Shown: positions 2 through 61,614, counted from the first letter of the stretch. The stretch: 61,614 nt of DNA from an uncultured Bacteroidales bacterium (GCA_964371595.1 CAYJNJ010000009.1:1-61614); one strand, 5' to 3'. Notes: generated by a model from the letters alone, not told the origin. Numbers and translations are program-made.

Positions 2-538
2 CGCTACCCGGAGATGCTGATAAAGATCATCGAGGAGAATGGGCTGGCGGAGCTGGATGCGGTCGGCGGTCAGCAGTTGGCGGTCAGCGGTCGGCGGTCG
101 GCGGTCAGCGGTCAGCAGTCGGATAACTCAAAAACTCCGATCTCAGAAATTCCGAACTCAACACTTAACCCTCAACCCTCAACACTCCACGCCATGGGTC
201 CCAACGACAGGCCCATCTTTCTCACGAATGGGGTGAAGTTCATCCTGGCAAGAAAAGGGGATGATTTTGTAAAAATTGCGGAGGAATTCGGGATATATTC
301 CTGGCAGCTTTACCAGTATAATGAGCTCGACAGGGACGAAGATATCGTGCCGGGTGAAAGGGTGTATATTGAAAAGAAGAAAGGAAGGGGGGAAGAGGCG
401 GAATACGTAGTGAAAGCGGGGGATGACATGAGGTCTGTTTCGCAGGCTTTCGGGATACGGCTGAAGGTACTTTGCAAGCTGAACCAGAAAGATAAATTTG
501 ATATGCTCCGTGAAGGTGAAGTGCTGAAACTGAGATAA
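2..538 (+). CDS. Glucosaminidase/LysM peptidoglycan hydrolase, 5'-truncated by the window edge
   Basis: Frame is open from position 2 (RYPEMLIKIIEENGLAELD, typical end of a glucosaminidase domain). A repeat-derived linker follows, then two LysM motifs (RKGDDFVKIAEEFGI; YVVKAGDDMRSVSQAFGI). Confidence 0.75.
   Translation, partial: RYPEMLIKIIEENGLAELDAVGGQQLAVSGRRSAVSGQQSDNSKTPISEIPNSTLNPQPSTLHAMGPNDRPIFLTNGVKFILARKGDDFVKIAEEFGIYSWQLYQYNELDRDEDIVPGERVYIEKKKGRGEEAEYVVKAGDDMRSVSQAFGIRLKVLCKLNQKDKFDMLREGEVLKLR
59..193 (+). repeat. Heptamer tandem repeats inside CDS: 9 x GCRGTYR (59-121) and about 5 x CAACMCT-like (152-193)
   Basis: Read directly: gcggtcg gcggtca gcagttg gcggtca gcggtcg gcggtcg gcggtca gcggtca gcagtcg; then caacact taaccct caaccct caacact. 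Confidence 0.9.
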
Positions 539-893
539 TTTGGCTGCGAAACTAAAAATAAGGGCTAAATTGGAACAATTCTATACGGAAAACCGTATTA
601 CAATATTGGCATGTTTTGATTAATCATATAATTATTACGATATGATGGGGAATTCCAAAATAAATGATATTTCTATTGCTTTTTTATCTTTATTGATTAC
701 TTTTGTTTTCAAATGCATCAAAGCCCGTCAAGTCTTTATTTTTATTAAATATTTGTTAAATTTGGACAAACAAGAACAATTTTGTTTTATTTTGCATAAT
801 CCTGGTTTCCGGAAAGGTTTCACTATTTCCCGGAGCCATTGCCGATTAAACCACTATGAATGAAAAATTTTGAATGATAAAAACCTTTCACTT

Positions 894-2522
894 ATGAAAC
901 GAATACTCTTTACGCTTTTATTACTGGCAGGCTGTTTAGCCGGGTACTCGCAGATGACCAACAACGGCGGTTCTATTACGGTAGAAAACGGCGCTACACT
1001 GGTTATCGAGGGAGATTACACCAGTACGGGCACAGGGACCATGGATATTGACGGGGAAGTTGTTCTTAAGGGCGACTTTGTGAATAACGGTGGAAGTATA
1101 GCCACCGGCTCATTCGGACAGTTGACGTTCAATGGTACGAGTGCCCAGGAAATTACAGGAAGTGCTTCAACCACCTTTTACTGTGCGGTTGAAGTGGACA
1201 ATGCCAGCGGAGTAGCGCTCACAGCTACGGCAGCACCGGGGGCCAGCCAGGTTCTCGACAGCTCGCTGATCCTGACCACGGGAAAGGTTACCCTGAACAC
1301 GTTCGACCTGACCTTAAGCAATGAAGGAGTGACCACCCCTTCAGCCACAAAATACATCGTGACCAATTCCACCGGGCAGCTTAAAGCCGCTGTCGGAGCA
1401 TCCAACTACCTTTTCCCTGTTGGAAGCGCATCGGCCTATAACCCAGTTATCCTGAACGAAGCAGGCAGCGCCGATACCTATGGTGTGACCTACGCCGCTT
1501 CAACCCCGGCAGGATGGGCACCGACTGACCACGCCGTGGTTGGCACATGGACAGTTACCGATGCCACCCCGGCCGGCAACCTCCTGACGGTTACCCCGGG
1601 CTGGAATGCCACCGATGAACAAACGAATTTTGACCCGACGGATTGCGCAGTCGGCGTTACAGCCGATAACGGCACGACCATCGCATGGAAAGCTTCAGGA
1701 GCCGCTACAGGCCCCGATGCAAACGGCATCTACGCTAAAAGCGGCGCCGGTTTTACCTCTTTAGGACAATATGTTGTCGGCGATTACTTCTTCGAAGGTA
1801 TCGACATCGACCTCGACCTGTTCCTTGCAGGGGCTTATAACGCAGGTTCAATGACAACCGGCCTGAATTCGATCATCCCGCTTACCGATCCTTACGGAAA
1901 CGGTATCAATGCAACTTCCATTCCTTCCGCCAATGTGGTCGACTGGGTGGAAATCGAACTGAGGGACCAGACCATACCGGCAACGGTTGTGAAATCGTAT
2001 TCAGGATTCCTTAACAACGACGGAAATGTACTGGGCATCAGCGGAACACCCGGACTGAAGCTCACCGGCGTTGCCAAAGCACAATATTATGTAGCGGTAA
2101 GGCACCGCAACCACCTTGGCGCAATGACCGCCAGCCCGATCAACTTCACCCTTGCAGGGCCCTTCGCTTTTGACTTCTCAGCTGGTACCGGAATCTATGG
2201 CACCGACGCTATGAGGGATATGGGATCCTCCGATTGGGCCTTATGGGCAGGAGATGCTAACGGCGACGGAGCCATAGTTTTCCAGGGTGCAGGAAATGAT
2301 CCTACACCGGTTGGTAATACCGTATCCAGTGATCCGGGCAATACCAATGACGAATTTACCTATGTTGTAAATGGGTATAATAATTCTGATGTGAACATGG
2401 ACGGACAGGTTATCTTCCAGGGAGCCGGTAATGACCCGACACCGATTGGTAACTCTGTCAGCAGCCACCCGGGTAATACCAACGACGAATTTACTTTTAC
2501 CGTCAATGACCAGCTTCCTTAA
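894..2522 (+). CDS. Secreted beta-rich protein with C-terminal HRNHL domain and duplicated dockerin-like Ca-binding module; no T9SS CTD
   Basis: Signal peptide MKRILFTLLLLAGCLAGYSQ from ATG 894. Motifs VVDWVEIELR and YYVAVRHRNHLG, then two 45-aa repeats starting GDANGDG and SDVNMDG. Confidence 0.75.
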   Translation: MKRILFTLLLLAGCLAGYSQMTNNGGSITVENGATLVIEGDYTSTGTGTMDIDGEVVLKGDFVNNGGSIATGSFGQLTFNGTSAQEITGSASTTFYCAVEVDNASGVALTATAAPGASQVLDSSLILTTGKVTLNTFDLTLSNEGVTTPSATKYIVTNSTGQLKAAVGASNYLFPVGSASAYNPVILNEAGSADTYGVTYAASTPAGWAPTDHAVVGTWTVTDATPAGNLLTVTPGWNATDEQTNFDPTDCAVGVTADNGTTIAWKASGAATGPDANGIYAKSGAGFTSLGQYVVGDYFFEGIDIDLDLFLAGAYNAGSMTTGLNSIIPLTDPYGNGINATSIPSANVVDWVEIELRDQTIPATVVKSYSGFLNNDGNVLGISGTPGLKLTGVAKAQYYVAVRHRNHLGAMTASPINFTLAGPFAFDFSAGTGIYGTDAMRDMGSSDWALWAGDANGDGAIVFQGAGNDPTPVGNTVSSDPGNTNDEFTYVVNGYNNSDVNMDGQVIFQGAGNDPTPIGNSVSSHPGNTNDEFTFTVNDQLP

Positions 2523-2554
2523 TTCATTCCATTTACTCTGAAAAAATTACAGAT

Positions 2555-4723: not shown

Positions 4724-4771
4724 TACCGGGTAATCTGGAATTTAAATTACAAAACGAAAAATTAAAACATT

Positions 4772-5005
4772 ATGAAAAAAGCGATATTCAACCTGATCAT
4801 TACCGGATTATTCCTCACGCTGCCTGTGATCATTGCTTCAGCTTCTGCACCACCACCACCGCCACCACCAGATGGAACAAGTACTGGTGACAGCCCGATT
4901 GGCGGCGCTGCCCCTATCGGAAGCGGGATTGTAATGCTGATCTCTATGGGAGCGGCCTACGGCGCTAAAAAAGTCTATGATGCCAGGAAACGCCTGGAAG
5001 AATAG
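4772..5005 (+). CDS. Small secreted poly-Pro protein with PID-CTERM-like sorting signal
   Basis: Signal peptide, PPPPPPP, then APIGSG + hydrophobic helix + GAAYGAKK basic tail. AT-rich leader before it and a terminator after it. Confidence 0.75.
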   Translation: MKKAIFNLIITGLFLTLPVIIASASAPPPPPPPDGTSTGDSPIGGAAPIGSGIVMLISMGAAYGAKKVYDARKRLEE

Positions 5006-5032
5006 AATCCCAAAACCAACCTGATATAATTC

Positions 5033-5069
5033 AAAACCATCTTTCCTGAACGGAGAGATGGTTTTTTTT
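5033..5069 (+). terminator. Intrinsic terminator closing the 894-5005 cluster
   Basis: AAAACCATCTTTCC-tgaac-GGAGAGATGG followed by T8. Confidence 0.8.
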
Positions 5070-5070
5070 A

Positions 5071-5109
5071 TTTAGCGATTTGACGATTTGGCGATTTGGC
5101 GATTTGGGG
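5071..5109 (+). repeat. Octamer tandem repeat TTTRRCGA x4
   Basis: tttagcga tttgacga tttggcga tttggcga tttgggg. Confidence 0.8.
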
Positions 5110-5144: not shown

Positions 5145-5292
5145 AGTCAGGTTAGCCATTAACGCCACTAAAACACTAAAACACAAAATATCACAAAACA
5201 TCACAAAAAATTGATTATTAAGCCAATAACTTTTGTGCAATTTAGTGTTTCCGTGCTTTTGTGGCAATAAAAAGGCTATTGAGGGTAAACTC
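5145..5292. mobile_element. MITE-like palindromic element, copy 1 (degenerate ends)
   Basis: Core GCCACTAAAACACTAAAACAC...GTGTTTCCGTGCTTTTGTGGCAATAAAAAGGCT is nearly identical to 15062-15188. Right end GGCTATTGAGGGTAAACTC resembles the TIR of copy 3. Confidence 0.7.
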
Positions 5293-5329
5293 AAAGTTCA
5301 ATGTTCAATCGTCCATGAAACTGGAACCT

Positions 5330-7321
5330 TTAATACAGCAAAATCCTTGCAAACAAATACCGGTCTTTTATCCTGATCCTTACCGTGTAGACACCCTGGC
5401 TGAAAGTGGAAAGGTTGATCGTAACGAGAGGATAGGTCTGGTCGGGGAGTTCTTCTTCAAAAATAATATGCCCCAGGACATCAAATACCTGGATAAATAA
5501 GGTGGCGGGAAGTTCTTCTTCCAGGAAAATATTTACTTTGCCCGTGGTGGGATTGGGGTAAACCTTACCTACCACATGGATAAAATCTTTCAACGAGAGC
5601 GTATCTTCATCGAAACCATTGGAAACGATAAGACTGACATCAAATGTGCCTGCGGAGGAATATAGCACCGTGCCAGGGTCACGGCCGGAAAAGGTTGCCG
5701 GGGTGCCGCCTTCAAAGGCCCATTCCCATGATACGGGCAGTCCTGAAGAGAGATTGGTGAATTCGATGCTGTTCCCGGCCAGGATGATCGTTTCGCTGGC
5801 CTGGAATGCCGCGGTCAGGTCGGCGTACTTGCCGGTAAGCGTCGTTACGCCGAGGTTCAGCGGGTCGAGCCAGTATTTGAGCTGCTGGCTGGGATCGTCG
5901 CCGTTCTGGTCCCAGGAATAATAGAACTTGCCATAGTAGTCGGGCTCGTTGGGGCCGGTTCCGTTACCGTTATCATCGCAGGCTGCATAGCCGCCGGTAA
6001 GCGTACCGACAAGTTTGCCGGTATTGTCGAACAACGGAGAACCTGACGATCCTTGTTCTGTAACGCCCCAGCCGCTTTCGGTTTCAGTCCAGAACACTTT
6101 CCAATGTGTTCCCGGCGGGCCACCCCATTGGTCTGATATCAAAGGAGTGGTGTAAGTAGATATTTTCTTGATATCCCCGGCCGGGTGATGGATCGTCACC
6201 CCCTGGGGGCTGGCGGCATTTTCCCTGTTCCAGCCGTTATAATACGGCTCATAATAAAGAGGTATGGTATCGGCAAGGCGGAGCAGCACGAAATCGGAAC
6301 CGGTTGTCGGGGCACTGGCCAGCTTCACCGCGCCGGTCATGCTGTTCGACGAAGGGGTAGCCGTAGGGTTTTCACATCCGGCCGCTTCGTAATTGAAATA
6401 GAAGATCCATTGCATGAAGTCTTCCGCAGAAGCCGATCCCGCGCAATGATCGGCGGTGAGGAAATAAGGCTCGTTGTTCTGCAGGGTGTTGTTTACCAGG
6501 GAGCCTGTGCACCAGTAGAAACCGCCGCCTTCCTTGATGTAGATCCTGGCCACGCCATGCTTCTGGAACTGCCAGTTATCGCCTTCGGGGCAATTGATGT
6601 TCACCTCGCAACCGTCGGACGTACCCCGGTTCCCGATGAAGCCTTCAAAATCCCTGTAAACATAGGAAACTTCGGAGATCCTGCAGGAGGAAATATCTTG
6701 TGCACCGGGCCGCGCATTGATTTCAACCGTCAAACGGTCGCCCGGGATTAATTCGGTGGAGAAAAGTCCGCTGGGATCGTTATTGTATAAGGTATATGAA
6801 CCCAGGACGTAATCGCCATCATCATTATAAACAAACATGCTGAAGCCGCTGCCAAGCCTGAATTCATCGAAATAAAGCCCTAATGCCAGCGCACCCTCAC
6901 ATTCAACCGACATTCTCCAAATCCTGGAACCATCGGTGAGGACCTCGGGACTGACCCCGTTAAGCAGGTCAATTCCGGCTTTCACAGCAATCCCGACCCT
7001 GGTGGGGTTACCCTGTTTTTCATTTTCGATATCGGATAATTTCAATAGTTCTTTATCCGGAGAAGGGAGCGTAAGCAGGTGAATTTCTTTTGGGCTGGAT
7101 TGGCTGAAGCTCAGGGGCTGGCCGCCGTGGGAAATCTGGGAGAAGAGGAGACCGGGGGAGAGGGAGAGGAGGAGGAGGAGGAGGAAGTGGTGAAGTGGTG
7201 AAGTGGTGAAGTGGTGAAGTGGTGAAGGGGTGAAGGGGTGAAGGTGACAAAGAGGGATAACGGGGTCTTTGTGACCTCTGTTATTCCCTCTGTGTCCTCT
7301 GTGGTTAAAAAAAAACTGCAT
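5330..7321 (-). CDS. Lysyl-endopeptidase-like (S1/trypsin-like) serine protease with PKD domain and T9SS CTD
   Basis: Triad motifs TADHC, DFVLL, GSSGSP; PKD motif WEWAFEGG; CTD VYPNP...GVYTVRI. The N-terminus is encoded by repeats. Confidence 0.85.
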   Translation of the reverse strand: MQFFFNHRGHRGNNRGHKDPVIPLCHLHPFTPSPLHHFTTSPLHHFLLLLLLSLSPGLLFSQISHGGQPLSFSQSSPKEIHLLTLPSPDKELLKLSDIENEKQGNPTRVGIAVKAGIDLLNGVSPEVLTDGSRIWRMSVECEGALALGLYFDEFRLGSGFSMFVYNDDGDYVLGSYTLYNNDPSGLFSTELIPGDRLTVEINARPGAQDISSCRISEVSYVYRDFEGFIGNRGTSDGCEVNINCPEGDNWQFQKHGVARIYIKEGGGFYWCTGSLVNNTLQNNEPYFLTADHCAGSASAEDFMQWIFYFNYEAAGCENPTATPSSNSMTGAVKLASAPTTGSDFVLLRLADTIPLYYEPYYNGWNRENAASPQGVTIHHPAGDIKKISTYTTPLISDQWGGPPGTHWKVFWTETESGWGVTEQGSSGSPLFDNTGKLVGTLTGGYAACDDNGNGTGPNEPDYYGKFYYSWDQNGDDPSQQLKYWLDPLNLGVTTLTGKYADLTAAFQASETIILAGNSIEFTNLSSGLPVSWEWAFEGGTPATFSGRDPGTVLYSSAGTFDVSLIVSNGFDEDTLSLKDFIHVVGKVYPNPTTGKVNIFLEEELPATLFIQVFDVLGHIIFEEELPDQTYPLVTINLSTFSQGVYTVRIRIKDRYLFARILLY
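7184..7315. repeat. Octamer repeat (GAAGTGGT x5, GAAGGGGT x2), CACAGAG-type hairpin and A9 tract in the 5' end of the protease gene
   Basis: Units at 7184-7239; imperfect inverted repeat 7246-7267 / 7273-7296; A9 at 7307-7315. Confidence 0.9.
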
Positions 7322-7330
7322 ATTTTGATG

Positions 7331-9811
7331 CTATTTAAGCAGGGATATTTTCTTCTGAACGGTACGGTCATCCGAAGAAACGCGGATAATGTAAATGCCA
7401 TTTGCTTCATTGGACAGGTCGATGGAGAATTCCCTGTCGGATAAGTCATGCTGGTAGGTGCTAATGACATTGCCGGTAGAATTAACTACTTCAATCGTCA
7501 CCTTTTCCCCTTTTCCACTTGTCCCCCATGCCTCAACGCCTTCCAGGACGCGGACTTTCAGTGCTCCCTGGCTCGGGTTGGGATAAACCATCACTCCATT
7601 GTGCAGGTAGATCTCTTTCACACTGATCTCACCGACAAGAATGTAGTTCTCTTTCTCGAGGGTGTTGCTTCCGAATGAATTCTTCGTACGTAACTTGACA
7701 TTGTACATGCCTTCGGCAGCGTATTTGATATTCTCGGGATTTTGCACTGAAGAGCCGGCTGGTTCACCTCCGGTAAAGGTCCAGGTCCACTGCGTCGGGT
7801 TGCCTGTGGAAATATCGAAGAAATTAACGGAATCACCGGGCATGATCTGCGTCACATCGGCATAAAAATCCGAAAGCGGCGCGGTACCGGCATTTACCGT
7901 AATATAATCATCCTTGAATTCGATATCGGTCCCGCCGTTATTAGAAGCGGTCAGGATCACATCATAAACGCCGGGTATAAGGTATTCGACACCGGTGGGA
8001 TTCTGCACGTTGGAAGTATCGGGTGACCCGCCTTCGAACGACCATTCCCAGTTGGTAGGCTCATTGGTTGAAAGGTCACTGAAATCGACAACATCGCCTT
8101 CAATGATTTCAACTGCACTGGCTGAGAAATCGGATTCAGGCGCCAACACCTGTTCAATAGTCATAAAGGCTGTCTTCACCTCGGTACTTTCGCCATCGGC
8201 ATTTTCTACGGTAAGGGTAACATCGAACACGCCGAATTCATTGTAAGTGACGGTAGGGTTCTGGATGTCGGAGGAATTCGGTGTCCCGCCCGGGAAGCTC
8301 CATGCCCAGGTAAGGGCCGGGTTTCCGGTGGTCAGGTCGGTGAACTGGACTGTTTCTCCCTGGAGGATATACGTTGTATCGACGGTGAAATCCACAACCG
8401 GAGGAAGGATCTGTGAAGAAAGCCCGGGCTGTTTCTGGATTTCGGTATTGGTCGGGTCGAGCCAGTCTTTAAGCCTTGTAGCGGGTGTTGATCCCATCTG
8501 GTCCCAGGAATACCATACTTTTCCGAACCATGCCGGGGATGGGTTATCGCAGGCATTGGAGGTATAACCGCCGGAGAGGTCGCCCATGATCAGGTGGTCC
8601 TGGTCGAAGATCGGTGAACCGGAAGAACCGCCTTCCATGATGGAAAGGCCGTTTTCAGTTTCCGACCATGCTACGCGCCAGTGCGAAGGGGTACCGTTCC
8701 ACCATGTCGATGAGATCATCGGTGTAAGGAAAGTCGATACTTTCTTGATGTCACCTGCCGGATGGTGGAGGCATTTACCGCTGTCGGCAGGTACGTTGGT
8801 CCTGTTCCAGCCATTGTAATAAACATTATAGGCAACCGGGGGCGTCGAGTTGAGCTTCACGAGTTCCCAGTCGGAACCGTCGAAGCCGGTGATAGGATCT
8901 TTGGATTTAAGCGTACAGCCATTCACGGTATTGCTTGAGGGGCCGTAATTACCGGAGCATGTTGCCGACTGGTAATTGAAGTAGAATATCCACTGGTTGA
9001 GGTCGGAAGCATTGGCGCCTTCTCCGCAATGTTCAGCGGTAAGGAGATAAGGCATCCTGTCGTTGCTGGTGTTGTTGATCAGCGAGCCGGAACACCAGTA
9101 GTAGCTCCAGCCGATCTTGATAGAAAGGCGTGCGATGCCCTGGATCTGGTCTTCCCAGCCGTTGCCTTCCGAGCATTTCACATTGATCATGCAGGGCAGG
9201 GAAAGGTTGGTTTCGCGGCCATTGGATTCAAAGGTGATAAAGCGGTAAGCGTAGGCAATCTCGGAGATGAAAATGGCTGATCTTTCGGTGGTGCCCGCCG
9301 GTTCAGTGTATTCAAGGGTGACATCGTCGCCTTCGATGAATTCCGTAGCAAACAGGCCGGATTCAGGATTGTTTTCACTGGTAAAAGCGCCGATCACCTG
9401 TGTTTTGCTTTCATTATAAAGGAAGAGGCTGCTGCCTTCCGGGAGGAAGAAATTGCTGTAATACACGCCTAAAGCGAGAGCGCCGGGGGAAGAAAGGGTC
9501 AGGCGCCAGATTTTGGAGCCATCGGGAAGGGTTTCCATGCTTCCGGCTGATTTCAGGTCGACATTGACCGGGATGGAATAGCCCATTCTTTCCGGGCCGG
9601 GATACGGAGACTCGGCATTGGCCTGGTCTTCCAGGGCAAGGGTCTGAAGATCCGGTTGCTGAAGGGCTATCCGGTTGAACTGTTCGTTTAAGCCTGACTG
9701 GCTAAAGCTGACAGGGCTGCCTCCCTGGCTGATCTGTGCAAAGGATGCAAAGCCTGTTAAAATCATGAATGAAAAGAGAACAAGCCTTTTGCGTAACTGG
9801 TACGGATTCAT
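7331..9811 (-). CDS. Paralogous lysyl-endopeptidase-like serine protease with 3 PKD domains and T9SS CTD
   Basis: TAEHC, DWELV, GGSSGSP; three W.W.F.GG PKD repeats; VYPNP CTD. Likely ATG 9811 (MNPYQLRKRLVLF signal peptide). Confidence 0.87.
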   Translation of the reverse strand: MNPYQLRKRLVLFSFMILTGFASFAQISQGGSPVSFSQSGLNEQFNRIALQQPDLQTLALEDQANAESPYPGPERMGYSIPVNVDLKSAGSMETLPDGSKIWRLTLSSPGALALGVYYSNFFLPEGSSLFLYNESKTQVIGAFTSENNPESGLFATEFIEGDDVTLEYTEPAGTTERSAIFISEIAYAYRFITFESNGRETNLSLPCMINVKCSEGNGWEDQIQGIARLSIKIGWSYYWCSGSLINNTSNDRMPYLLTAEHCGEGANASDLNQWIFYFNYQSATCSGNYGPSSNTVNGCTLKSKDPITGFDGSDWELVKLNSTPPVAYNVYYNGWNRTNVPADSGKCLHHPAGDIKKVSTFLTPMISSTWWNGTPSHWRVAWSETENGLSIMEGGSSGSPIFDQDHLIMGDLSGGYTSNACDNPSPAWFGKVWYSWDQMGSTPATRLKDWLDPTNTEIQKQPGLSSQILPPVVDFTVDTTYILQGETVQFTDLTTGNPALTWAWSFPGGTPNSSDIQNPTVTYNEFGVFDVTLTVENADGESTEVKTAFMTIEQVLAPESDFSASAVEIIEGDVVDFSDLSTNEPTNWEWSFEGGSPDTSNVQNPTGVEYLIPGVYDVILTASNNGGTDIEFKDDYITVNAGTAPLSDFYADVTQIMPGDSVNFFDISTGNPTQWTWTFTGGEPAGSSVQNPENIKYAAEGMYNVKLRTKNSFGSNTLEKENYILVGEISVKEIYLHNGVMVYPNPSQGALKVRVLEGVEAWGTSGKGEKVTIEVVNSTGNVISTYQHDLSDREFSIDLSNEANGIYIIRVSSDDRTVQKKISLLK

Positions 9812-9865
9812 TGTATGAGTAATTTTAAGTTTTATTTGTAAAGAATTTTCAGGGTACGAAGGGAG

Positions 9866-9946
9866 CAAATATAACTATTTTCTATGTGCAGGATTTAAAA
9901 AAGTAGTACAACAGTTCAGGAAATCGGCCGTTTAGTTGTATATTTG
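9866..9946. promoter_or_regulatory. Divergent Bacteroidota -7 promoter boxes (TAnnTTTG)
   Basis: TATATTTG on + at 9939-9946 and on - at 9866-9873, between divergent genes. Confidence 0.55.
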
Positions 9947-10944: not shown

Positions 10945-10963
10945 GCCGAGGTGTTTTTAATGG

Positions 10964-12406: not shown

Positions 12407-15037
12407 ATGAAATCAGCTGAAGTAAGGAAAATATTTCTCGAATTTTTTGAGTCGAAAGCGCATAAAATAGTTCCTTCGGCACCGATGGTGGTTAAGAACG
12501 ATCCGACCTTAATGTTCACCAATGCCGGTATGAACCAGTTCAAGGATGTTTTCCTCGGGCATATGCCGGCCAAATATTTACGTATCGCCGACACGCAAAA
12601 ATGCCTCAGGGTTTCAGGCAAGCATAACGACCTGGAAGAGGTCGGGCATGATACCTACCATCATACTATGTTTGAAATGCTTGGTAACTGGTCGTTTGGT
12701 GATTATTTCAAGAAAGAGGCGATCGAATGGGCATGGGAACTGCTGACGGAAAAATACGGCATTTCTAAGGAAAACCTTTATGTCACCGTGTTTGAAGGCG
12801 ATGAAAAGGATAATATACCAGTCGACAGCGAAGCCAGGGATATCTGGAGCCACATCATTTCACCCGACCATATTTTATTAGGCTCCAAGAAAGATAATTT
12901 CTGGGAGATGGGTGAGACCGGGCCTTGCGGACCCTGTTCGGAGATCCACGTGGATATCCGCACCGAAGAAGAAAAGAGCCTGGTGCCGGGAAAAGAGCTG
13001 GTCAACAAGAGCCATCCGCATGTTCTTGAGATCTGGAACCTGGTTTTCATCGAATTCAACAGGCAGATGGACGGAAAGCTGGTCCCGCTGCCGCAGAAGC
13101 ATGTCGACACGGGGATGGGCTTTGAGCGCCTGACCATGGTGATCCAGGGAAAGAGATCGAATTATGATTCGGATATTTTCCAGCCGACGATCGGTGAAAT
13201 AGGGAAGATCTCCGGTAAAAAATACGGCGAAAATGAAGATGTCGACATTGCCATGCGCGTTATCGCAGACCATGTGCGGGCCATTTCATTTGCCATTGCC
13301 GACGGGCAGTTGCCATCCAATACGGGGGCCGGTTACGTCATCCGCCGCATCCTGCGCCGGGCGATTCGTTACGGCTACACCTTCCTCGATCTGAAAGAGC
13401 CTTTTATCCAGCAGCTCGTACCGGTCCTGTCAGAAAATATGGGCGGATATTTCCCGGAACTGCGCTCCCAGGGCGAACTGATCCGGAAAGTCGTGGCCGA
13501 GGAGGAGCATTCCTTCCTCAGGACGCTTTCGCAGGGGATCAGGAAGTTCGAGACCTATATCCAGGCCAATGCCGGCAAAAAAGAGATCGACGGAAAGTTT
13601 GCCTTTGAACTGTTCGACACCTATGGCTTCCCGGTGGATTTGACCCAGGTGATGGCTTCTGAAAAGGGCTGGACAGTTGATATGAAAGGTTTCCAGGAAG
13701 GGCTTGAAGTGCAGAAAAGCCGTTCCAGGCAGGCCGCACAGGTCGATACTTTCGACTGGATAATTCTGATAAAAGGCAAGGATGATACCGAATTCATCGG
13801 CTATGATAACAGCGAGGCCGATGTGGAAATCGTGAAATACCGCAAGGTCAAGGCAAAAGGGCAGGAGTATTTTGAAATCGTTCTCGACCAGACCCCGTTT
13901 TATGCCGAATCGGGCGGCCAGGTAGGCGACCGCGGTTACCTGGAATGCGGCGGACAGATGATCGTCGTTGAAAATACTTACAAAGAGAATGAGCTGATCA
14001 TCCATAAAACCACTGAAATATTTTCTGAAACCGGTAAAAAGGTCCATGCCGTCGTCGATAGCTGGAAGAGGAATTCCACGGCAAATAACCACAGCGCCAC
14101 CCATCTCATGCATGCCGCACTGAGAAAAGTGTTAGGGATGCATGTCGAACAGAAAGGCTCGCTGGTGGATGAAGAGCACCTGCGCTTCGACTTCTCCCAT
14201 TTTGCCAAAATGACCGATGAAGAGATCCGCGAAGTGGAACAGATCGTGAACCGCAAGATCAGGGAGAATATCAGCAAGGGAGAGCAGCGCAGGGTGCCGG
14301 TGGATACAGCGAAAAAAATGGGTGCCATGGCTTTATTCGGCGAGAAGTACGGTGAGGAAGTGAGGGTGATCACCTTTGATCCTGCCTATTCCATAGAGCT
14401 TTGCGGCGGGACGCATGTGCCTTCCACCGGCCAGATCGGCTTTTTCAAGATCATCTCCGAAGGCGCCATCGCCGCCGGTATCCGCCGTATCGAGGCTGTG
14501 ACGGGGGAGAAGGCCGAAGCCTACATCTTTGGGCAGGTTGACATGGTCGCTGAGATCCGGGAATCGCTCAAAAATGCAAAAGATCTTGTAAAAGGGGTGA
14601 AAGCCCTTTCGGAAGAAAATAAAGCATTACAGCGCAAGATCGAAGAGCTGAACCGCTACCGGGTCGATGCGCTGAAATCGGAATTGCTGGCACAGGCCGA
14701 AACCATCAACGGAACCAGGTTCATTGCCACCCGGCTTGATCTCGACGCCAAATCGGCCAAAGACCTGGCTTTCTTACTGAACGAAAAGCAGGAAAGCATG
14801 TTCATCCTTTTTATTACCACTGCAGAGGAAAAAGTCAACCTCAGCCTGATGCTTTCCGATGACCTGGTAAAATCCAGGGGCATGCATGCCGGCAACCTGG
14901 TAAAGGAGCTTGCGAAAGAGATCAACGGCGGCGGCGGTGGCCAGCCTAATTTTGCGACAGCAGGCGGGACGAACGCGAAGGGGATAGATGCAGTGCTGTT
15001 GAAGGCGCGGAAGACAGTTGGACAGTTGGACAGTTGA
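12407..15037 (+). CDS. alaS: Alanine--tRNA ligase
   Basis: DPTLMFTNAGMNQFK, HHTMFEMLGNWSFGDYFK, DTGMGFER, ELCGGTHV, GGGGG C-terminus. Confidence 0.98.
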   Translation: MKSAEVRKIFLEFFESKAHKIVPSAPMVVKNDPTLMFTNAGMNQFKDVFLGHMPAKYLRIADTQKCLRVSGKHNDLEEVGHDTYHHTMFEMLGNWSFGDYFKKEAIEWAWELLTEKYGISKENLYVTVFEGDEKDNIPVDSEARDIWSHIISPDHILLGSKKDNFWEMGETGPCGPCSEIHVDIRTEEEKSLVPGKELVNKSHPHVLEIWNLVFIEFNRQMDGKLVPLPQKHVDTGMGFERLTMVIQGKRSNYDSDIFQPTIGEIGKISGKKYGENEDVDIAMRVIADHVRAISFAIADGQLPSNTGAGYVIRRILRRAIRYGYTFLDLKEPFIQQLVPVLSENMGGYFPELRSQGELIRKVVAEEEHSFLRTLSQGIRKFETYIQANAGKKEIDGKFAFELFDTYGFPVDLTQVMASEKGWTVDMKGFQEGLEVQKSRSRQAAQVDTFDWIILIKGKDDTEFIGYDNSEADVEIVKYRKVKAKGQEYFEIVLDQTPFYAESGGQVGDRGYLECGGQMIVVENTYKENELIIHKTTEIFSETGKKVHAVVDSWKRNSTANNHSATHLMHAALRKVLGMHVEQKGSLVDEEHLRFDFSHFAKMTDEEIREVEQIVNRKIRENISKGEQRRVPVDTAKKMGAMALFGEKYGEEVRVITFDPAYSIELCGGTHVPSTGQIGFFKIISEGAIAAGIRRIEAVTGEKAEAYIFGQVDMVAEIRESLKNAKDLVKGVKALSEENKALQRKIEELNRYRVDALKSELLAQAETINGTRFIATRLDLDAKSAKDLAFLLNEKQESMFILFITTAEEKVNLSLMLSDDLVKSRGMHAGNLVKELAKEINGGGGGQPNFATAGGTNAKGIDAVLLKARKTVGQLDS

Positions 15038-15062
15038 CAGTTGACAGTTGGACAGTTGGACA
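15013..15062 (+). repeat. GACAGTT(G) 7/8-mer tandem repeat overlapping the alaS stop
   Basis: gacagttg gacagttg gacagtt gacagtt gacagttg gacagttg gaca; the TGA stop is at 15035-15037. Confidence 0.9.
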
Positions 15063-15188
15063 AAAGTCAGGTTAGTCAATATTGCCACTAAAACACTAAA
15101 ACACAAAAGATCACAAAATATTGATTATTAAGTTAATAACTTTTGTGTAATTTAGTGTTTCCGTGCTTTTGTGGCAATAAAAAGGCTT
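15062..15188. mobile_element. MITE-like palindromic element, copy 2 (TIRs truncated to AAAAGTC / GGCTT)
   Basis: Near-identical to 5145-5277; lies between the convergent alaS and gpsA genes. Confidence 0.72.
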
Positions 15189-15223
15189 CTTCCGACTTCT
15201 GTCTTCTGCCTTCTGTCTTCTAC
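15189..15223 (+). repeat. CTTCTGY heptamer repeat overlapping the gpsA stop
   Basis: cttccga cttctgt cttctgc cttctgt cttctac. Confidence 0.85.
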
Positions 15224-16206
15224 TCCGTAACCGGGAAGTTAATGATGCGGTTGACGAACTGGGAGAGGTCGTAATGATCGGTAAAGACTTTATGGAGTTC
15301 GTGCAGGATGGGGAATTTGTGGCTGAGGTTCCTTGAGGAGAGGACAGTTACGAGGACGTTCACCGCTATTTTTCCTTCCAGGACTACGCTATCCGACATT
15401 TCGCGGGTGAAAAAGCCTTTCCCGATGAGCAGGCCCAGGGTCCGGTTACGGCTGAGGTCGTTGAGGGCAGTAAGGGTGAAATCACCGAAGCCACAGAATT
15501 TAAACATCGTCTTTTCGTCACATTCAAATTCCAGCAGGATATCCCTCATTTCCTTGAAAGATTTGGTCAGGACCAGCGAGCGCAGGTTCGGCGCATCGAA
15601 GCTGGCGTCAGTGATCCCTGCAACAATTGCATAGATATTTTTCAGGATGCTGAGGAATTCAACGCCCTGCACATCGGTGCTGTAATCGAGGAAAATGTTA
15701 GTGTCGCGGAACAATCCCCCGAAGACCGGAAAATGGGCCGGATCGGTGGAGCCAAGCGTGAAGGCTGTAGGCTGGTTGTTGATGATATCGCGGGCAAATG
15801 TCGGTCCCTTCATGGTACAAACCGGGTTCGGCAGGAAATCCTTGAGGCAGCGGATGATGGTGCAGTTATGCTCCCCGAATCCTTTGGCAAGGTTGACGAT
15901 CACCGCCCCGGGAGGAATGATTGCCTGGTGTTCCTTCAGGTAATTCACGGTTTCGACGGAAGGGATTGCAGTGAAAATAAAGCCGGCAGATTTGATCGGA
16001 TCCAGGCTGGTTGCGGCTTTCAGCCTTGAATTTAATATGATGCCAGGAAAATATTTGCGATTGATGTTTGAATCATTAATGGATCGGACAACTTCTTCTT
16101 CAATGGAAACCAGGGTGATATTGTTTTCGGGGTTTTTAGCCAGGGAATTACCCAGGGCGGTTCCGATTGCGCCTGCACCGATAAATACTATGTCATTTGA
16201 CGGCAT
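15220..16206 (-). CDS. gpsA: NAD(P)H-dependent glycerol-3-phosphate dehydrogenase
   Basis: IGAGAIGTALG, AKG, GPTFA, LKNIYAI, GFGDFTLT, SRNRTLG, LEG. Confidence 0.85.
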   Translation of the reverse strand: MPSNDIVFIGAGAIGTALGNSLAKNPENNITLVSIEEEVVRSINDSNINRKYFPGIILNSRLKAATSLDPIKSAGFIFTAIPSVETVNYLKEHQAIIPPGAVIVNLAKGFGEHNCTIIRCLKDFLPNPVCTMKGPTFARDIINNQPTAFTLGSTDPAHFPVFGGLFRDTNIFLDYSTDVQGVEFLSILKNIYAIVAGITDASFDAPNLRSLVLTKSFKEMRDILLEFECDEKTMFKFCGFGDFTLTALNDLSRNRTLGLLIGKGFFTREMSDSVVLEGKIAVNVLVTVLSSRNLSHKFPILHELHKVFTDHYDLSQFVNRIINFPVTE

Positions 16207-16271
16207 CAAAATACGGTTTACGTGTTATATCCTAAAGTTGTGGCAAAATTAGGGTAAAAATAAGTTGGAAA

Positions 16272-32811: not shown

Positions 32812-33852
32812 ATGGAGATATTTCCCAATCATTCGCTATTCAAATTTAATACCTTCGGTATTGATGTTAAGGCCAGGGAGTTTGCAGAGGTTGAAAGGGA
32901 AGCCGATCTCGTTGAAATTATTTCCGATTGTCGTGATAAATCCAGGAAATTGCTGATCCTTGGCGGGGGCAGCAATGTGCTGTTTACCGGTGATTTTGAC
33001 GGGATGGTTGCAAGGATTTGCACCAGGGGCATGGAGATTATCGCGGAAGATGAAGAAGAAGTCAGGCTCAGGGTGGCCGCCGGAGAGGACTGGGACGGGC
33101 TGGTACAATATTGTGTAGAGCAGGGCTGGGGCGGGCTGGAAAACCTCTCGGGGATACCGGGATATGCCGGCAGCAGCCCGATCCAGAATATCGGGGCTTA
33201 CGGGACCGAGTTGAAAGACCACTTTTTATCACTGGAAGGCATCAACCATTGCACCGGCGAAAAGGTGCAGTTTGATGCGGAGCGTTGCCAGTTTGGCTAC
33301 CGCGACAGCATATTCAAGCGTGCACTCAAAGGCAGGATAGTTATAACGAATGTCATTTTCCGCCTAAGTAAAAAACCGGTTATAAACCTCACGTACCAGG
33401 CCCTGAAACAAAAATTATCCACGATACCAGAAAAAGAGATCACGATACAGAATGTCCGCGAAACAGTCCTTGGGATCAGGTCATCCAAGCTGCCTGATCC
33501 GAAAGTTATCGGCAATGCAGGGAGTTTCTTTAAGAACCCGGTAATTGGTGCTTCGAAACTGGAAGAATTGAAGGATAGGTTTCCAGGATTAGTTTTCTTT
33601 GAATTGCCGACCGCCGACCGCCGACCGCCGACTGCCGACTATAAATTAGCTGCCGGCTGGCTCATCGAGCAATGCGGATGGAAAGGGTACCGGACCGGGG
33701 ATGCCGGCGTGCACAAAGACCAGGCCCTTGTGCTTGTTAATTACGGCCATGCTTCCGGCCACGAGATCCTCGACCTGGCATTGAAAATTCAGCAGTCGGT
33801 GAAGGAAAAATTTGGCGTAGAGCTGGAAAGGGAGGTGAATGTGATTCAGTAG
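32812..33852 (+). CDS. murB: UDP-N-acetylmuramate dehydrogenase
   Basis: LGGGSNVLF, GLENLSGIPG, FGYRDS, GNAGSFFKNP, AGWLIE, QALVLVN, LEREV. Confidence 0.96.
   Translation: MEIFPNHSLFKFNTFGIDVKAREFAEVEREADLVEIISDCRDKSRKLLILGGGSNVLFTGDFDGMVARICTRGMEIIAEDEEEVRLRVAAGEDWDGLVQYCVEQGWGGLENLSGIPGYAGSSPIQNIGAYGTELKDHFLSLEGINHCTGEKVQFDAERCQFGYRDSIFKRALKGRIVITNVIFRLSKKPVINLTYQALKQKLSTIPEKEITIQNVRETVLGIRSSKLPDPKVIGNAGSFFKNPVIGASKLEELKDRFPGLVFFELPTADRRPPTADYKLAAGWLIEQCGWKGYRTGDAGVHKDQALVLVNYGHASGHEILDLALKIQQSVKEKFGVELEREVNVIQ
33606..33640 (+). repeat. GCCGACY x5 heptamer repeat inside murB
   Basis: gccgacc gccgacc gccgacc gccgact gccgact, encoding PTADRRPPTAD. Confidence 0.92.
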
Positions 33853-42296: not shown

Positions 42297-42312
42297 ATAA
42301 TGCTTAATGTTT

Positions 42313-42465
42313 GAGCCCGCTCCGAAAAGTCAAATTTCTGAAAGATGCCACTAAAACACAAAAACACAAAATCACACCAAAAATTGGTTATCAATGTTAT
42401 AATATTTTGTGAATTTTCGTGTTTTAGTGATTTTGTGACTAAAAAAGGCTTTTCGGAGTGGACTC
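42313..42465. mobile_element. MITE-like element, copy 3 (153 bp, intact TIRs, 6-bp TSD)
   Basis: TIRs GAGCCCGCTCCGAAAAGTC / GGCTTTTCGGAGTGGACTC (16/19 match). ATGTTT is duplicated at 42307-42312 and 42466-42471. Same GCCACTAAAACAC core as copies 1 and 2. Confidence 0.82.
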
Positions 42466-42500
42466 ATGTTTAATGCTTAATGATTAATTTTTAATGAATA

Positions 42501-43091
42501 ATGGGTAAAATTGATAAGCAGTTTTATATACGGGAGGATGTTGTCGGGATTGCACGGAACTTAATCGGAAAATATCTTTATACACAATTCGACGGGGGGA
42601 TCACGGCGGGGATAATCACTGAAACTGAGGCTTATGAAGGTGTCACCGACAGGGCTTCGCATGCTTTTGGCAACAGAAGGACGAACAGGACTGAGGTGAT
42701 GTTTGCCGAAGGCGGTCTTGCCTACGTATACTTGTGTTATGGCGTTCATTCCCTTTTCAATATTGTAACGAATAAGAAAGATACGCCACATGCCGTGCTG
42801 ATCAGGGGTATTTTGCCGGTTGAAGGGCTGGAAATAATGAGGGTAAGATCCGGTAAAAGCATCATAAATATGAGCGCAGGCACGGGACCGGGAAATGTTT
42901 CGAAGCTGCTGGGCATACATTTTTCACAGAGCGGCACCGACCTTTCGGGAAATAAGATCTGGCTTGAAGATAAAGGGTTGAACCTGGAAGGGGACATAAT
43001 TCAAGGTACCCGTATCGGGGTTCAATATGCCGGTGATGACGCGCTATTGCCATACCGGTTCAGGGTAAAGGAGGTGAAAATTAACAGATAA
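42501..43091 (+). CDS. DNA-3-methyladenine glycosylase (MPG family)
   Basis: GIITETEAY, DRASHA, YVYLCYG, AVLIR, GPG, RIGV. Confidence 0.93.
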   Translation: MGKIDKQFYIREDVVGIARNLIGKYLYTQFDGGITAGIITETEAYEGVTDRASHAFGNRRTNRTEVMFAEGGLAYVYLCYGVHSLFNIVTNKKDTPHAVLIRGILPVEGLEIMRVRSGKSIINMSAGTGPGNVSKLLGIHFSQSGTDLSGNKIWLEDKGLNLEGDIIQGTRIGVQYAGDDALLPYRFRVKEVKINR

Positions 43092-50439: not shown

Positions 50440-50482
50440 CAAATATTTAATTTCTTACATTTGTATCCTGAGACAGACACAG

Positions 50483-52108: not shown

Positions 52109-52222
52109 GTTTCCCTTCCATTCGTTCATCTTATAAACCGGGATTTACCATTGGTAAACTCATCAATTATTCATTTCCCTCATACTTTACATTTGTGAAA
52201 AATTTAAATAATCCTGACATAT

Positions 52223-54139: not shown

Positions 54140-54145
54140 CTATAA

Positions 54146-54233
54146 TTCCCGCAAAGTCCGCAAATAATAGTAAGAGCGCAAAGTTTCACACTTTTTGCGC
54201 TCTTATTTTTTTGATTTGCTTGCTTTGCGTGAA
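54146..54233. repeat. CGCAAAG-type nested palindrome / terminator
   Basis: Stems TTCCCGCAAAG/CTTTGCGTGAA, GCAAAT/ATTTGC and TAAGAGCGCAAA/TTTGCGCTCTTA, followed by a T tract. Confidence 0.7.
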
Positions 54234-54291
54234 AACAATTCTAATCGTAATGTGTTGAGATTTTGTGTTATTTTTACATAAAACTCATTCT

Positions 54292-55056
54292 ATGAATAAG
54301 CTAATATTTACATTTATCCTTCTTATTTCGTTTATTCTTACTTCGTCTATCTCATACTCCCAGTGCGAGCCGCTGACCCCCGAGCAATGTCCTGACCCGG
54401 AAAACAACGGGCAGATTTGCCCCGACTCGCTGGAACCGGCATTTATTCATGTGGAATACAGCCAGGTGGCAACCATCAAGCCTCCGGCGGTGTATTTTCT
54501 GCCCCCGGATAGCACTGAAATTAACCTTCACCATGTGAAACTTATGGAAGTTGGCAATTTGCCTGATGGGATTACCTGGCAAAGCAATACGGAAGACAGC
54601 GTTTTCGTCGCCGGAGAATATTATTGTGTCCTGTTGGAAGGCACTAACCATTCAGGTGGAAGTTTTCCTTTATCGATTGTAGTGGATGTTTATGTCCTCG
54701 TTTTTAATATACCGGTAAAGGTTGCTACAGTTGTCGATTCCACATCCCTGACGATTGAGGTTATCGATAATTCCTGGATAAAAGATAACGAAAGCCCCTC
54801 TTTCCATGCAGAGCAAAATGTGCCAAACCCTTTCAGTTCAGAAACCCGGATCAGGTTCTATTCTGAAAAACCTGGAAATGTAACTTTCGAAGTGTATTCG
54901 CTTTTGGGGGAAATGGTTTACAGCGAGCAGCTTATTGCTTCAAAAGGCGAAAATGCAGTAGTTTATCACGGTGAAAAGCTGCCTTTCGGAACTTATTTCT
55001 ACAGGCTGCGTTCCGACCGGTACCAGTCGGGAGGGATGATGGTACGCGCCAAATAA
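54292..55056 (+). CDS. Small T9SS-type secreted protein
   Basis: Signal peptide from ATG 54292; QNVPNPF...GTYFYRL CTD. Confidence 0.75.
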   Translation: MNKLIFTFILLISFILTSSISYSQCEPLTPEQCPDPENNGQICPDSLEPAFIHVEYSQVATIKPPAVYFLPPDSTEINLHHVKLMEVGNLPDGITWQSNTEDSVFVAGEYYCVLLEGTNHSGGSFPLSIVVDVYVLVFNIPVKVATVVDSTSLTIEVIDNSWIKDNESPSFHAEQNVPNPFSSETRIRFYSEKPGNVTFEVYSLLGEMVYSEQLIASKGENAVVYHGEKLPFGTYFYRLRSDRYQSGGMMVRAK

Positions 55057-55073
55057 GATATCATTCCCTGAGA

Positions 55074-57326: not shown

Positions 57327-57329
57327 GCC

Positions 57330-60323: not shown

Positions 60324-60343
60324 AGCTTGGATTTTTAAATTGG

Positions 60344-60434
60344 TTCTTGCTGATTTACGCAGATCAAAACGCAGATCATCGCAGATCTGTTTATCAGCGG
60401 TATCTGCGGTTAAATCTGCGAACATCTGCGAGAA
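60344..60434. repeat. CGCAGAT-type palindrome of tandem repeats
   Basis: Left arm TGCTGAT, CGCAGAT x3; right arm ATCAGCG, ATCTGCG x3; ends TTCTTGC / GCGAGAA. Confidence 0.85.
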
Positions 60435-60548
60435 ATCTTGTACAAAGAAGGTCAAAATTTGCCAAATAACTTACAATCCGTCGTTATTTATTTGTTAACA
60501 AAAGTTGAAATTATTAGGTAATCCGATGACTACAGCCGTCGGTTGATA

Positions 60549-61614
60549 TCAAAACGTAGCCTTCAGATAAATGTTCCCGCCAGGAGGGACCGAAACCGTC
60601 CCGTCAAATACAGAAGCCTTCAGCCCGTCGGGATCTGAAACAGCAACAGACTTAAAAGCGTTGACAAATTCGGGTTTTTCAGCCGTGGTCCCCGCATTGA
60701 AAATAGAAAGCAGAAATTCCTTCCCCTGGTTTATGGGCTTGATGGAAGTAATGACCAGTCCTGTGCCGGCAAATTTAACCAGCGATCCCTTTTCCTTCAT
60801 GCTCCCCCCGCCTTTACGCGTGATCAGAGGCTGGCGAAGGCCTATGGCTGCCTTTTCTGCCACCGCCGGGTCAAATCCGTCATGGGGCATGATAATATAG
60901 CGTGAAGAGCAGCTCCCTTCCTGGGAAGCGGCATAATTGGTCTCCCAGTAATTATTCATAAGATAAGAATAAAAGGTCTGGGTAGAAGGGATTGAATCCA
61001 CCCATCCGTAAACAATTTCATCCATTGTGATCTCCCCGGCCTCGAACAATGGGGCATCAGGACAAATGATCATAACGCCGCTGTTATCATTCGAGATATC
61101 CAGCCAGTGCTCCATCGCAAGGTAATTCTTGTTGGAGCCTGGAAGCTGGTCCAGTTCCGGGCGGCAATAGCCATAGGCGAGATCGTAGCGCATAACGCCG
61201 TCGGGGATGCTAAAGGGGAAAGCCAGGTGCACTGCTTCCGGAGTAAGTACTTTTTCCCGGTCAAGGGTATTGGTAATTTCGATAAGATTTAGATCATCGA
61301 TGATGCGGATGGTACTGGTCAGGCTTTTGCATCCCGGGGCAGTGATTTCGATTTTAATGAGGGTCACCACCGGGCCGCTTTCGATGATGGAGATGTCTTT
61401 GAGCTTTGCCTGCAGCGGCGCCGAGGGCAGGCGGCCATCTACATAAAGGTATTCGTTCAGGCCATAGGGTGATGTGGAATTTACAAGCTCGCGGCCGGAG
61501 GCTTTAGCTATTAATGAAGAAATGGCACCGGTGGGGGAGAGGGTGAGGGAGAAGTGAGTCGTTTGGATTTGAGGTGGTGAGGTGGTGGTGTGGTGAAGTG
61601 GTGGGGTGGTGGGG
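60549..61614 (-). CDS. GH38 (alpha-mannosidase-like) C-terminal part, 5'-truncated by the window edge
   Basis: Frame is open to the window end (GAISSL...GRELVN...LNEYLY...ESGPVV); EAVHLAFPF, SYLMNNYWETNY. Confidence 0.7.
   Translation of the reverse strand, partial: PTTPPLHHTTTSPPQIQTTHFSLTLSPTGAISSLIAKASGRELVNSTSPYGLNEYLYVDGRLPSAPLQAKLKDISIIESGPVVTLIKIEITAPGCKSLTSTIRIIDDLNLIEITNTLDREKVLTPEAVHLAFPFSIPDGVMRYDLAYGYCRPELDQLPGSNKNYLAMEHWLDISNDNSGVMIICPDAPLFEAGEITMDEIVYGWVDSIPSTQTFYSYLMNNYWETNYAASQEGSCSSRYIIMPHDGFDPAVAEKAAIGLRQPLITRKGGGSMKEKGSLVKFAGTGLVITSIKPINQGKEFLLSIFNAGTTAEKPEFVNAFKSVAVSDPDGLKASVFDGTVSVPPGGNIYLKATF
61571..61614. repeat. Degenerate GRRGTGGT-type 7-8 nt repeat inside the last CDS
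   Basis: gaggtggt gaggtggt ggtgtggt gaagtggt ggggtggt gggg; same family as 7184-7239. Confidence 0.8.

Follow-up and report, generated by a model that had tools for sequence, protein, structure and literature searches.

The window analysed here, a stretch of 61,614 nucleotides (nt) of DNA from an uncultured Bacteroidales bacterium, makes up the entire contig C9 of a draft genome (G000; 4.39 Mb in 183 contigs, 96.7% complete) and is punctuated by tandem arrays whose units are seven or eight nt long and differ in sequence from one array to the next. Such arrays are made of the same sequence material as the inverted arms of foldback cassettes that carry a gene of the four-helix-bundle family PF05635. 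Arrays were called with Tandem Repeats Finder (TRF), and Markov simulation, Pfam, BLAST, Rfam and folding were used beside it. A first-pass annotation had proposed at least ten arrays with this period and with differing units, and TRF recovers all 11 that it listed. The arrays, together with the open reading frames (ORFs) that house them and three copies of a transposable element of the miniature inverted-repeat type (MITE), are given below with copy numbers and the source of each call.

59..122: heptamer array GCGGTCR (TRF unit GCGGTCG x9.1), organised in a 21-nt higher order and contained in the open frame of ORF 2..538 (+), which has a LysM domain; TRF, translation
125..187: two adjoining arrays, AACTCAAAAACTCCG x2.5 and ACTCAAC x4.6 (the latter at 156-187), in the linker of the LysM ORF; TRF
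5070..5107: octamer array ATTTGGCG x4.8, intergenic, about 40 nt to the left of MITE copy 1; TRF
5145..5277 (+): MITE copy 1, lacking its outer terminal repeats; sequence, BLAST family
5291..5309: weak heptamer array TCAATGT x2.7, to the right of MITE copy 1; TRF score 31
7184..7243: octamer array GAAGTGGT x7.5, in the 5' part of ORF 5330..7321 (-), a trypsin/PKD protein with a type IX secretion system (T9SS) tail; TRF, Pfam
7501..7526: octamer array CCTTTTCC x3.2, in frame in the T9SS C-terminal sorting domain of ORF 7331..9868 (-); TRF, Pfam, translation
15013..15062: octamer array GACAGTTG x6.5, terminating alaS by providing its TGA stop; TRF
15063..15188 (+): MITE copy 2, between the arrays 15013..15062 and 15188..15221
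15188..15221: TCTTCTG x4.9, a heptamer array that adjoins the gpsA stop (15220..16209, -); TRF
33606..33639: GCCGACC x4.9, a heptamer array read in frame as part of a MurB surface loop; TRF, Pfam
42298..42313: two heptamer units, AATGCTT AATGTTT, to the left of MITE copy 3 and part of an array split by it
42314..42467 (+): full-length MITE copy 3, which has the terminal inverted repeats GAGYCCRCTCCGAAAAG and is flanked by the 6-nt direct repeat ATGTTT
42466..42503: heptamer array ATGYTTA x4.4 (TRF unit ATGTTTA at 42466-42496), to the right of MITE copy 3; TRF
61573..61614: octamer array GGTGGTGA/AGTGGTGG x5.2, at the contig end, open in frame of ORF 60549..61613 (-); TRF

At six of these positions (59, 7184, 15013, 15188, 33606 and 61573) the unit is that of a cassette arm in G000 or in sister genomes. 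The array at 7184..7243 shares its unit class with the arms of a PF05635 cassette on contig C34, the unit GACAGTTG at the end of alaS is the arm unit of a cassette at C75:18541-19087, TCTTCTG is the arm unit of a cassette in the sister genome G004 (L169), and the class of the terminal array recurs in the arrays with which contigs C34 and C16 begin. None of the G000 cassettes lies in the window itself.

Genome-wide, TRF reports 1663 tandem arrays in G000, including 631 of period 7, 409 of period 8 and 296 of periods 9-12; the last are likewise in excess, with the peak at 7-8. The genome-wide count proposed in the first-pass annotation separates G000 cleanly from its control, since a fifth-order Markov simulation of the genome yields 93 TRF rows and none of period 7 or 8, against 1040 real arrays. 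These sum to 44,075 nt, approximately 1% of the genome, with a median of 35 nt and 4.8 copies and a maximum of 20 copies. About 190 differing units occur genome-wide, and the 631 heptamer arrays fall into just 112 of the 1172 possible unit classes, the largest of which (AAATTCC) accounts for 86 arrays. Two unit families that had been noted at distant loci of the window do recur, the ACCGCCG class in 30 arrays and the AAGTGGTG class in 27. Cassette arm units are found among the top classes, namely the octamers AAATTGTT (35 arrays), AACTGTCC (33) and AAGTGGTG and the heptamer AAATTCC. Units drawn from the 58 arm units of sister cassettes make up 259 of the 1040 arrays, where random expectation is approximately 3% for heptamers and 0.5% for octamers; when own-arm and sister-arm units are set against each other, the counts are 261 and 64 of the 1040. 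In a 400-kb sample of the sister genome G007 the corresponding figures for own-arm and other-arm units are 16 and 9 of 64 arrays, and 27 of its 39 units are also present in G000. A comparison of masked flanks found that only 264 of 1915 resemble the flank of another array, and most arrays are hence not pieces of larger repeated elements; the matching flanks come from repetitive extragenic palindromic (REP)-like hairpins, the MITE, tRNA genes and paralogous genes. The idea that they are parts of larger repeats had been suggested by a cluster of 749 of 2080 unmasked flanks, which proved to be an artefact of neighbouring arrays.

The association with PF05635, one of several sources suggested at the outset, is pronounced. 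Of the 13 copies above the Pfam cut-off, eight have arrays on both sides, as opposed to 136 of 3392 ORFs (binomial p = 7e-9), and in six of the eight the left array recurs on the right as its reverse complement. The other gene families put forward fare differently: only one of 11 GxxExxY/PDDEXK_3 genes has an array, on a single side, none of four DUF559 genes has one, and no match to the reverse transcriptase (RT) domain RVT_1 was found in the 96.7%-complete genome. Within 3 kb, 66 inverted pairs of arrays share a unit, and among pairs with gaps of 20-650 nt there are 47-48 inverted as against 16 direct. A gap of 360-650 nt contains a PF05635 ORF, whereas the 33 pairs with gaps of 20-121 nt are gene-less hairpins. 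When 48 elements were folded in silico, a median of 79% of left-arm bases paired with the right arm (median z = -8.6 relative to shuffles). The upstream gene's stop codon marks the beginning of the cassettes, a conserved leader ahead of the ATG is common to many of them, and every cassette gene comes with an arm unit of its own. The array-armed build is found at 19 of 30 PF05635 loci drawn from 27 genomes of the order, including genomes that are otherwise poor in arrays. An Rfam scan of six cassette loci matched no family and gave one sub-threshold match to a miRNA model on a hairpin. A related build was noted at C16:1-633 in G000, where octamer arrays in inverted orientation (TGGTGGAG / CACCACTC) surround a 158-residue ORF without a PF05635 match and more arrays are stacked alongside.

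Alignment of orthologous loci in sister genomes, proposed as a check for empty and filled sites, reveals both states. A cassette site on contig C18 is filled in G000, in G005, in G006 (as a pseudogene) and in G009 and G004, where the gene is inverted; in G007, G008 and G001 the same site is empty and comprises 21-85 nt with at most a short hairpin. Conversely, 50 cassettes of sister genomes map to 17 resolvable sites in G000, three of which are filled and one of which holds a decayed cassette with intact arms (C75:16221-16662). Eight more are gene-less but carry arrays, in two instances (C85 and C124) with the unit of the sister's arm, four lack TRF arrays and one contains other DNA. Two of the four sites without TRF arrays are clean, and the other two have degenerate hairpins whose arms show an 8-nt periodicity. 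Arrays are thus present at eight of 13 gene-less sites, compared to a junction background of 18% (p = 6e-4).

The array trait is clade-specific and mostly missing elsewhere in the order. In samples of 12-54 kb per genome, which include nine other species of the genus of G000, the genus has 1.0-2.9 arrays per 10 kb and two further genera of the family have 5.6 (G010) and 2.25 (G011), so that all 12 sampled genomes of these three related genera contain arrays; in a fourth genus the values are 0.25 (G012) and 0 (G013). Other families of the order were represented by 17 genomes, of which 12 have no arrays and five have 0.5-1.6 per 10 kb, and at least one array is present at 14 of 80 alaS loci of distant Bacteroidota. 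Array density correlates with the number of PF05635 copies (Spearman 0.72 across 31 genomes and 0.60 within the 17 from other families). In the latter, arrays occur in four of the five genomes with at least six copies and in one of the 12 with fewer, and all four relatives with zero copies are without arrays in the samples. Ten distant genomes, picked by the presence of arrays in an 8.6-kb alaS locus that is too small to call a genome array-free, have PF05635 counts that are suggestive only: 3, 8, 6, 12 and 13 with an array at the locus and 0, 0, 6, 2 and 11 without one. On a separate note, the C-terminal domain of SbcD (PF12320) was detected in only two of 31 genomes of the order, with Bacteroides thetaiotaomicron as a positive control. 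Loss of the SbcCD hairpin nuclease was rejected as the cause of the arrays, as the domain is absent from array-poor genomes as well and a single Pfam domain is no proof of absence; a missing hairpin nuclease might nevertheless provide a permissive background for foldbacks.

Arrays are concentrated between genes and at gene 3' ends. By crude longest-ORF gene calls, 566 of the 1040 are intergenic (390 of 5 x 1040 randomly placed positions), 192 touch a 3' end (random 222), 125 lie in a 5' end (random 674), 146 are internal to genes (random 3876) and 11 are of mixed class (random 38). Where arrays persist the harm is small: between genes, at gene ends, where a unit may supply the stop codon, and in frame within surface loops and linkers. 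The proposal that arrays sit in frame inside five genes of the window holds for murB, for the LysM linker and, in ORF 7331..9868, for the sorting domain. For the array at 7184-7243, contained in the sole open frame of ORF 5330..7321, translation is uncertain, and the one at 61573-61614 is open just as far as the contig reaches. Translation of the LysM-domain gene stays open across three arrays in the linker, and the array in the T9SS sorting domain adds about eight residues (81 residues match 73 profile positions). Stop codons are indeed contributed by arrays, as had been noted for two genes: the TGA of alaS (15035-15037) lies inside its array, and the stop of gpsA overlaps the last TCTTCTG unit by 2 nt.

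Both copy number and unit sequence change fast between species. At the alaS-end junction, five species have five differing units. In MurB, the loop TADRRPPTAD encoded by GCCGACC units is a variable loop between conserved blocks; the array is common to G007, TTCCAAA units stand in its place in G003 and an inverted GTTCGCG/GCGAACT pair in G004, and the remaining species, G009 (below) apart, have unrelated short loops. The linker of the LysM-domain gene carries related GCGGTCA/GCAGTCA and AACTCAG/ACTCAAC arrays in four species (relatives of the array 59..122 at the equivalent place in G003, G004 and G007, and AACTCAG arrays equivalent to 125..187 in G003 and G004), which implies that arrays can be inherited and can drift in concert. 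One array grades from AGTCGTC through AGTCGGC and GGTCGGC to GGTCAGT. As regards phase-variable contingency loci, where a repeat in the 5' coding part or promoter of a surface or virulence gene switches expression, the murB and alaS-end arrays belong to housekeeping genes and keep the frame in the contigs compared, and the one frame-shifted sister murB may be an assembly error.

Two further observations concern murB. In G009 (L154) its loop contains a dispersed hairpin element, CTCACCCC..CTCTCC-loop-GGAGAG..GGGGAGAGG, in frame and read as TPHPPLHLERGAGGEVAG, and the same hairpin element is common beside arrays in G000. The murB gene of G003 (L159, G003:C14:177725-178787) falls into two reading frames, and the break coincides with its TTCCAAA array, which represents either an assembly error in array length or real heterogeneity of an essential gene.

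How, then, are the arrays of the window related to the cassettes? We lean towards the view that they are solo members of a clade-wide population of 7-8-nt arrays in which new arrays stem largely from the turnover of foldbacks, aided by slippage. New arrays with units of the common repertoire would arise largely through the gain, inversion and decay of foldbacks, a cassette passing into a gene-less hairpin and eventually into a single arm. Replication slippage and homogenisation within the array would then amplify and remodel what is left, and a smaller share of arrays would arise locally. By extension, the partnerless arrays, which make up approximately 85% of the total and include all window arrays in the partner test, would descend from cassettes as well. 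The first-pass annotation had argued that slippage cannot account for the recurrence of units and that a dedicated seeding mechanism may exist; the non-random recurrence and the PF05635 source have stood up, and GxxExxY, DUF559 and RT genes and MITE footprints have dropped out.

A number of observations weigh against this view. The sharing of units is equally expected if the arms are arrays that have grown on hairpin stems, and a common pool of units would account for the data just as readily with material flowing in either direction. The contrast between own and other arm units is weak in G007, where 7 of 15 cassettes were sampled. No inverted partner exists within 700 nt for 926 of the 1040 arrays and no partner of either kind for 887, nor for any of the nine window arrays in a test set that excluded 7184-7243, 7501-7526 and 5291-5309. 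The empty C18 sites have no TRF array and the two clean empty sites measure just 6 and 23 nt; cassette loss hence need not leave arrays. Past the arms, the surroundings of PF05635 genes hold 48 arrays in 139 kb, a density only about 1.5 times the genome mean of 2.37 per 10 kb, and local seeding around cassettes was discarded as an explanation on these numbers. G012 and G013 have nine and 11 PF05635 copies and yet few or no arrays in their samples, and three of the five distant genomes without an array at the alaS locus still possess 6, 2 and 11 copies. Related genomes are non-independent and the samples small, which makes the p-values optimistic, the gene calls are crude, and slippage is a presumed process, the comparison having covered contigs rather than sequencing reads.

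The strongest rival is slippage alone, whereby chance local duplications grow because loops of 7-8 nt escape mismatch repair. Recurrence would then denote slip-prone or tolerated sequences, the arms would be converted hairpin stems, and nothing would be mobilised. This account is possible, although we judge it to be on the unlikely side. It sits well with the solo state of most arrays and their unique flanks, with the lack of a strong strand bias, with the two clean cassette sites, and with units at the same site that are often a few changes apart between species and arrays that grade from one unit into another; moreover, passages of PMC4679880 describe heptamers as the commonest class of long simple-sequence repeats (SSRs) in many prokaryotes and ascribe them to polymerase slippage. 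It struggles with a repertoire that is very narrow and common to species, as the overlap between G007 and G000 illustrates, and with the own-arm units, fourfold enriched over sister-arm units in G000. It also has to explain why a single murB loop has received, across species, unrelated units (GCCGACC, TTCCAAA, GTTCGCG/GCGAACT) and a dispersed hairpin, and why cassette arms are 7-8-nt arrays even in genomes otherwise without arrays.

Another reading takes the arrays as binding sites, each unit being bound by a protein subunit (candidates are the pentameric PF05635 protein or a cold-shock-type OB-fold) with a role in mRNA processing, termination or translation. Arrays do occupy gene junctions (about 17% of the co-directional, 24% of the convergent and 20% of the divergent ones) and closely abut stop and start codons, every cassette couples its own gene with its own arm unit, and in the passages of PMC4679880 that deal with TAACTGA repeats MacGregor proposes S1, Csp and CsrA as binders. 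The bias in strand relative to transcription is however weak and unit-specific (14:35 for AAATTCC, 16:13 for AACATTC), most units occurring in both orientations, and thus lends no support to a role at the RNA level. With more than 190 differing units, arrays that are gained or lost between sister species at housekeeping genes, and many arrays inside coding loops, we consider binding sites quite improbable.

The MITE family comprises 82 loci in G000 according to BLAST, nine of them full length with terminal repeats. As the first-pass annotation stated, all three copies in the window have arrays nearby. The element has a foldback structure of its own, with an 8-10-nt periodicity in its arms (CACTAAAA/CACAAAAN versus TTTTGTG), and at copy 2 one contig of run X1 in the Logan collection joins 15036 to 15189 without the MITE, a weak joint given its 24-nt side. 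The last rival, in which the MITE or its kin repeatedly inserted and excised and each unit is the target-site duplication that stayed behind, is scarcely credible even though the three window copies touch arrays and copy 3 lies inside one: the flanking repeats of the nine full-length copies (six exact, 6-nt and A+T-rich, one of 6 nt with a mismatch, one of 7 nt, one unclear) do not fit a period of 7-8 nt, arrays lie within 40 nt of just 23 of the 61 copies that measure at least 90 nt, and G+C-rich units such as GCCGACC are unlike the MITE target.

Other hairpin repeats are present alongside. Three Y1_Tnp genes resembling RAYT (REP-associated tyrosine transposase) genes, at C90:3147-3491, C22:41442-41786 and C30:38011-38349 in G000, are flanked by their own REP-type hairpins, which differ in sequence from the 7-8-nt arrays, so that the arrays do not qualify as REP elements of this kind. 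The REP beside the C22 gene is also found, mirror-wise, in both arms of the PF05635 cassette on C99. A hairpin-like leader consisting of CGGGTAT, about 20 W-rich nt and CCGGAT(A/T)AAC is conserved and occurs 31 times in G000, with none in the window (for instance at C99:11695-11724, C22:41363-41392, C6:72481-72510 and C23:3628-3658), and 16 of the 31 lie upstream of small genes from four unrelated families, namely PF05635, DUF559, PDDEXK_3/GxxExxY and Y1_Tnp.

With respect to its genes, the window harbours a cluster of T9SS cargo genes with Por_Secre_tail domains (5330-9868, 19410-24578 and 50369-60455) beside housekeeping genes and an Rnf operon, and the cargo proteins have PKD, trypsin-like, C25 peptidase, lamin-tail and beta-propeller domains. 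A cyanobacterial host was considered, heptamer arrays being classic in that group, and ruled out by the Pfam matches (T9SS sorting domains, a gingipain-type C25 peptidase, DUF4783, and also the Rnf operon, murB and alaS) and by the alaS relatives, the best named of which are uncultured Bacteroidales, Lentimicrobiaceae and other Bacteroidota at no more than 66% identity. The sequence of the window is found in Logan contigs of sediment and groundwater metagenomes, and no RNA runs with it were found there.

The arrays leave their mark on assemblies. In G000, a 7-8-nt array is located no more than 150 nt from 94 of the 366 contig ends; Logan contigs break at arrays, and those of four runs join unrelated ones, such as 114 to 5103 and 15036 to 87 (a joint in run X4 showing a GTTCACC array has only a 22-nt side and is weak). 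Arrays therefore fragment and confuse short-read assemblies. In practical terms they cause metagenome assemblies to break or to be joined chimerically, they lengthen ORF calls, and they put peptide repeats of 7-8 residues into essential proteins such as MurB.

Short tandem heptamer families in prokaryotes have been known for decades and are not known to have an accepted origin. The cyanobacterial short tandemly repeated repetitive (STRR) heptamers were reportedly described by Mazel in 1990, and small dispersed repeats nested in heptamer arrays of Nostoc are said to have been described by Elhai in 2008. The foldback (FB) transposons of Drosophila likewise have inverted arms of short tandem repeats. 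To the FB elements and the Nostoc repeats the likeness is architectural only, as these are eukaryotic and cyanobacterial, respectively, and no transposase was identified here. The 1040 arrays, which we group with the STRR and long-SSR kinds, consist of head-to-tail units within the 5-11-nt range of long SSRs. In common with long SSRs and STRRs, so far as the passages on them go, they have tandem 7-nt units that are over-represented, mostly intergenic and of few families at many loci, with a sporadic phylogeny; they differ in their Bacteroidota host, in octamers being nearly as common as heptamers (409 versus 631), and in that many lie in frame in housekeeping proteins. The coincidence of unit families with PF05635 cassette arms was not found in the passages on long SSRs. 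As STRRs in the strict sense, which have a cyanobacterial host and the STRR1-3 units, they are excluded by their host.

The introduction of PMC4679880 credits Mrazek (2007) with the recognition of heptamer-rich genomes and the idea of slippage. In the passages concerned, MacGregor (2015; PMC4679880) describes direct repeats of the heptamer TAACTGA in Beggiatoaceae, cyanobacteria and five Bacteroidetes and gives no mechanism. The resemblance extends to arrays by start and stop codons and sometimes within ORFs, to other heptamers alongside, and to related strains in which a given site is devoid of them. A single unit is concerned there as opposed to about 190 here, those passages make no mention of four-helix-bundle genes, and the 40 commonest heptamer classes of G000 do not include that of TAACTGA.

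The PF05635 family is the S23p family of 23S-rRNA intervening sequences (IVSs), which also contains the Avd accessory proteins. The nearest published precedent for the cassettes is the IVS of Coxiella burnetii, for which passages of Warrier (2016; PMC4990558) report an S23p ORF within a 28-bp terminal stem, strain-variable tandem GACAGAT units and excision by RNase III; the S23p four-helix-bundle family is described there as having no known function. Both have the S23p/PF05635 gene in a stem of terminal inverted repeats, tandem heptamers in the arm, and ORF decay in some copies. By analogy, the cassette stems of G000 may be substrates of RNase III. They part company in location, since the cassettes examined are not inserted in 23S rRNA but run from the stop of a protein gene to before the next gene, and in having arms of up to 13 units, 13-15 copies per genome and a unit of their own in each. 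Array-armed cassettes outside rRNA did not come up in the titles and abstract openings of the literature on TIGR02436, PF05635 and S23, and neither did a link between arrays and cassettes in titles on STRRs and IVSs. A bolder proposition would make the PF05635 cassettes self-propagating foldbacks, whose arms, perhaps with a pentameric nucleic-acid-binding protein acting in trans, generate 7-8-nt families genome-wide; under it, a single widespread and undescribed class of mobile hairpin elements, related to the 23S rRNA IVS, would have left behind or given rise to the unexplained STRR-type repeats found in Bacteroidota, cyanobacteria, Beggiatoaceae and Xanthomonas. This we regard as speculative and doubtful. 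The narrower comparison ties the heptamer families to the S23p/PF05635 family quantitatively in one genome, and the same units, the same stem build and the filled, decayed and empty sites together make the origin of such families testable.

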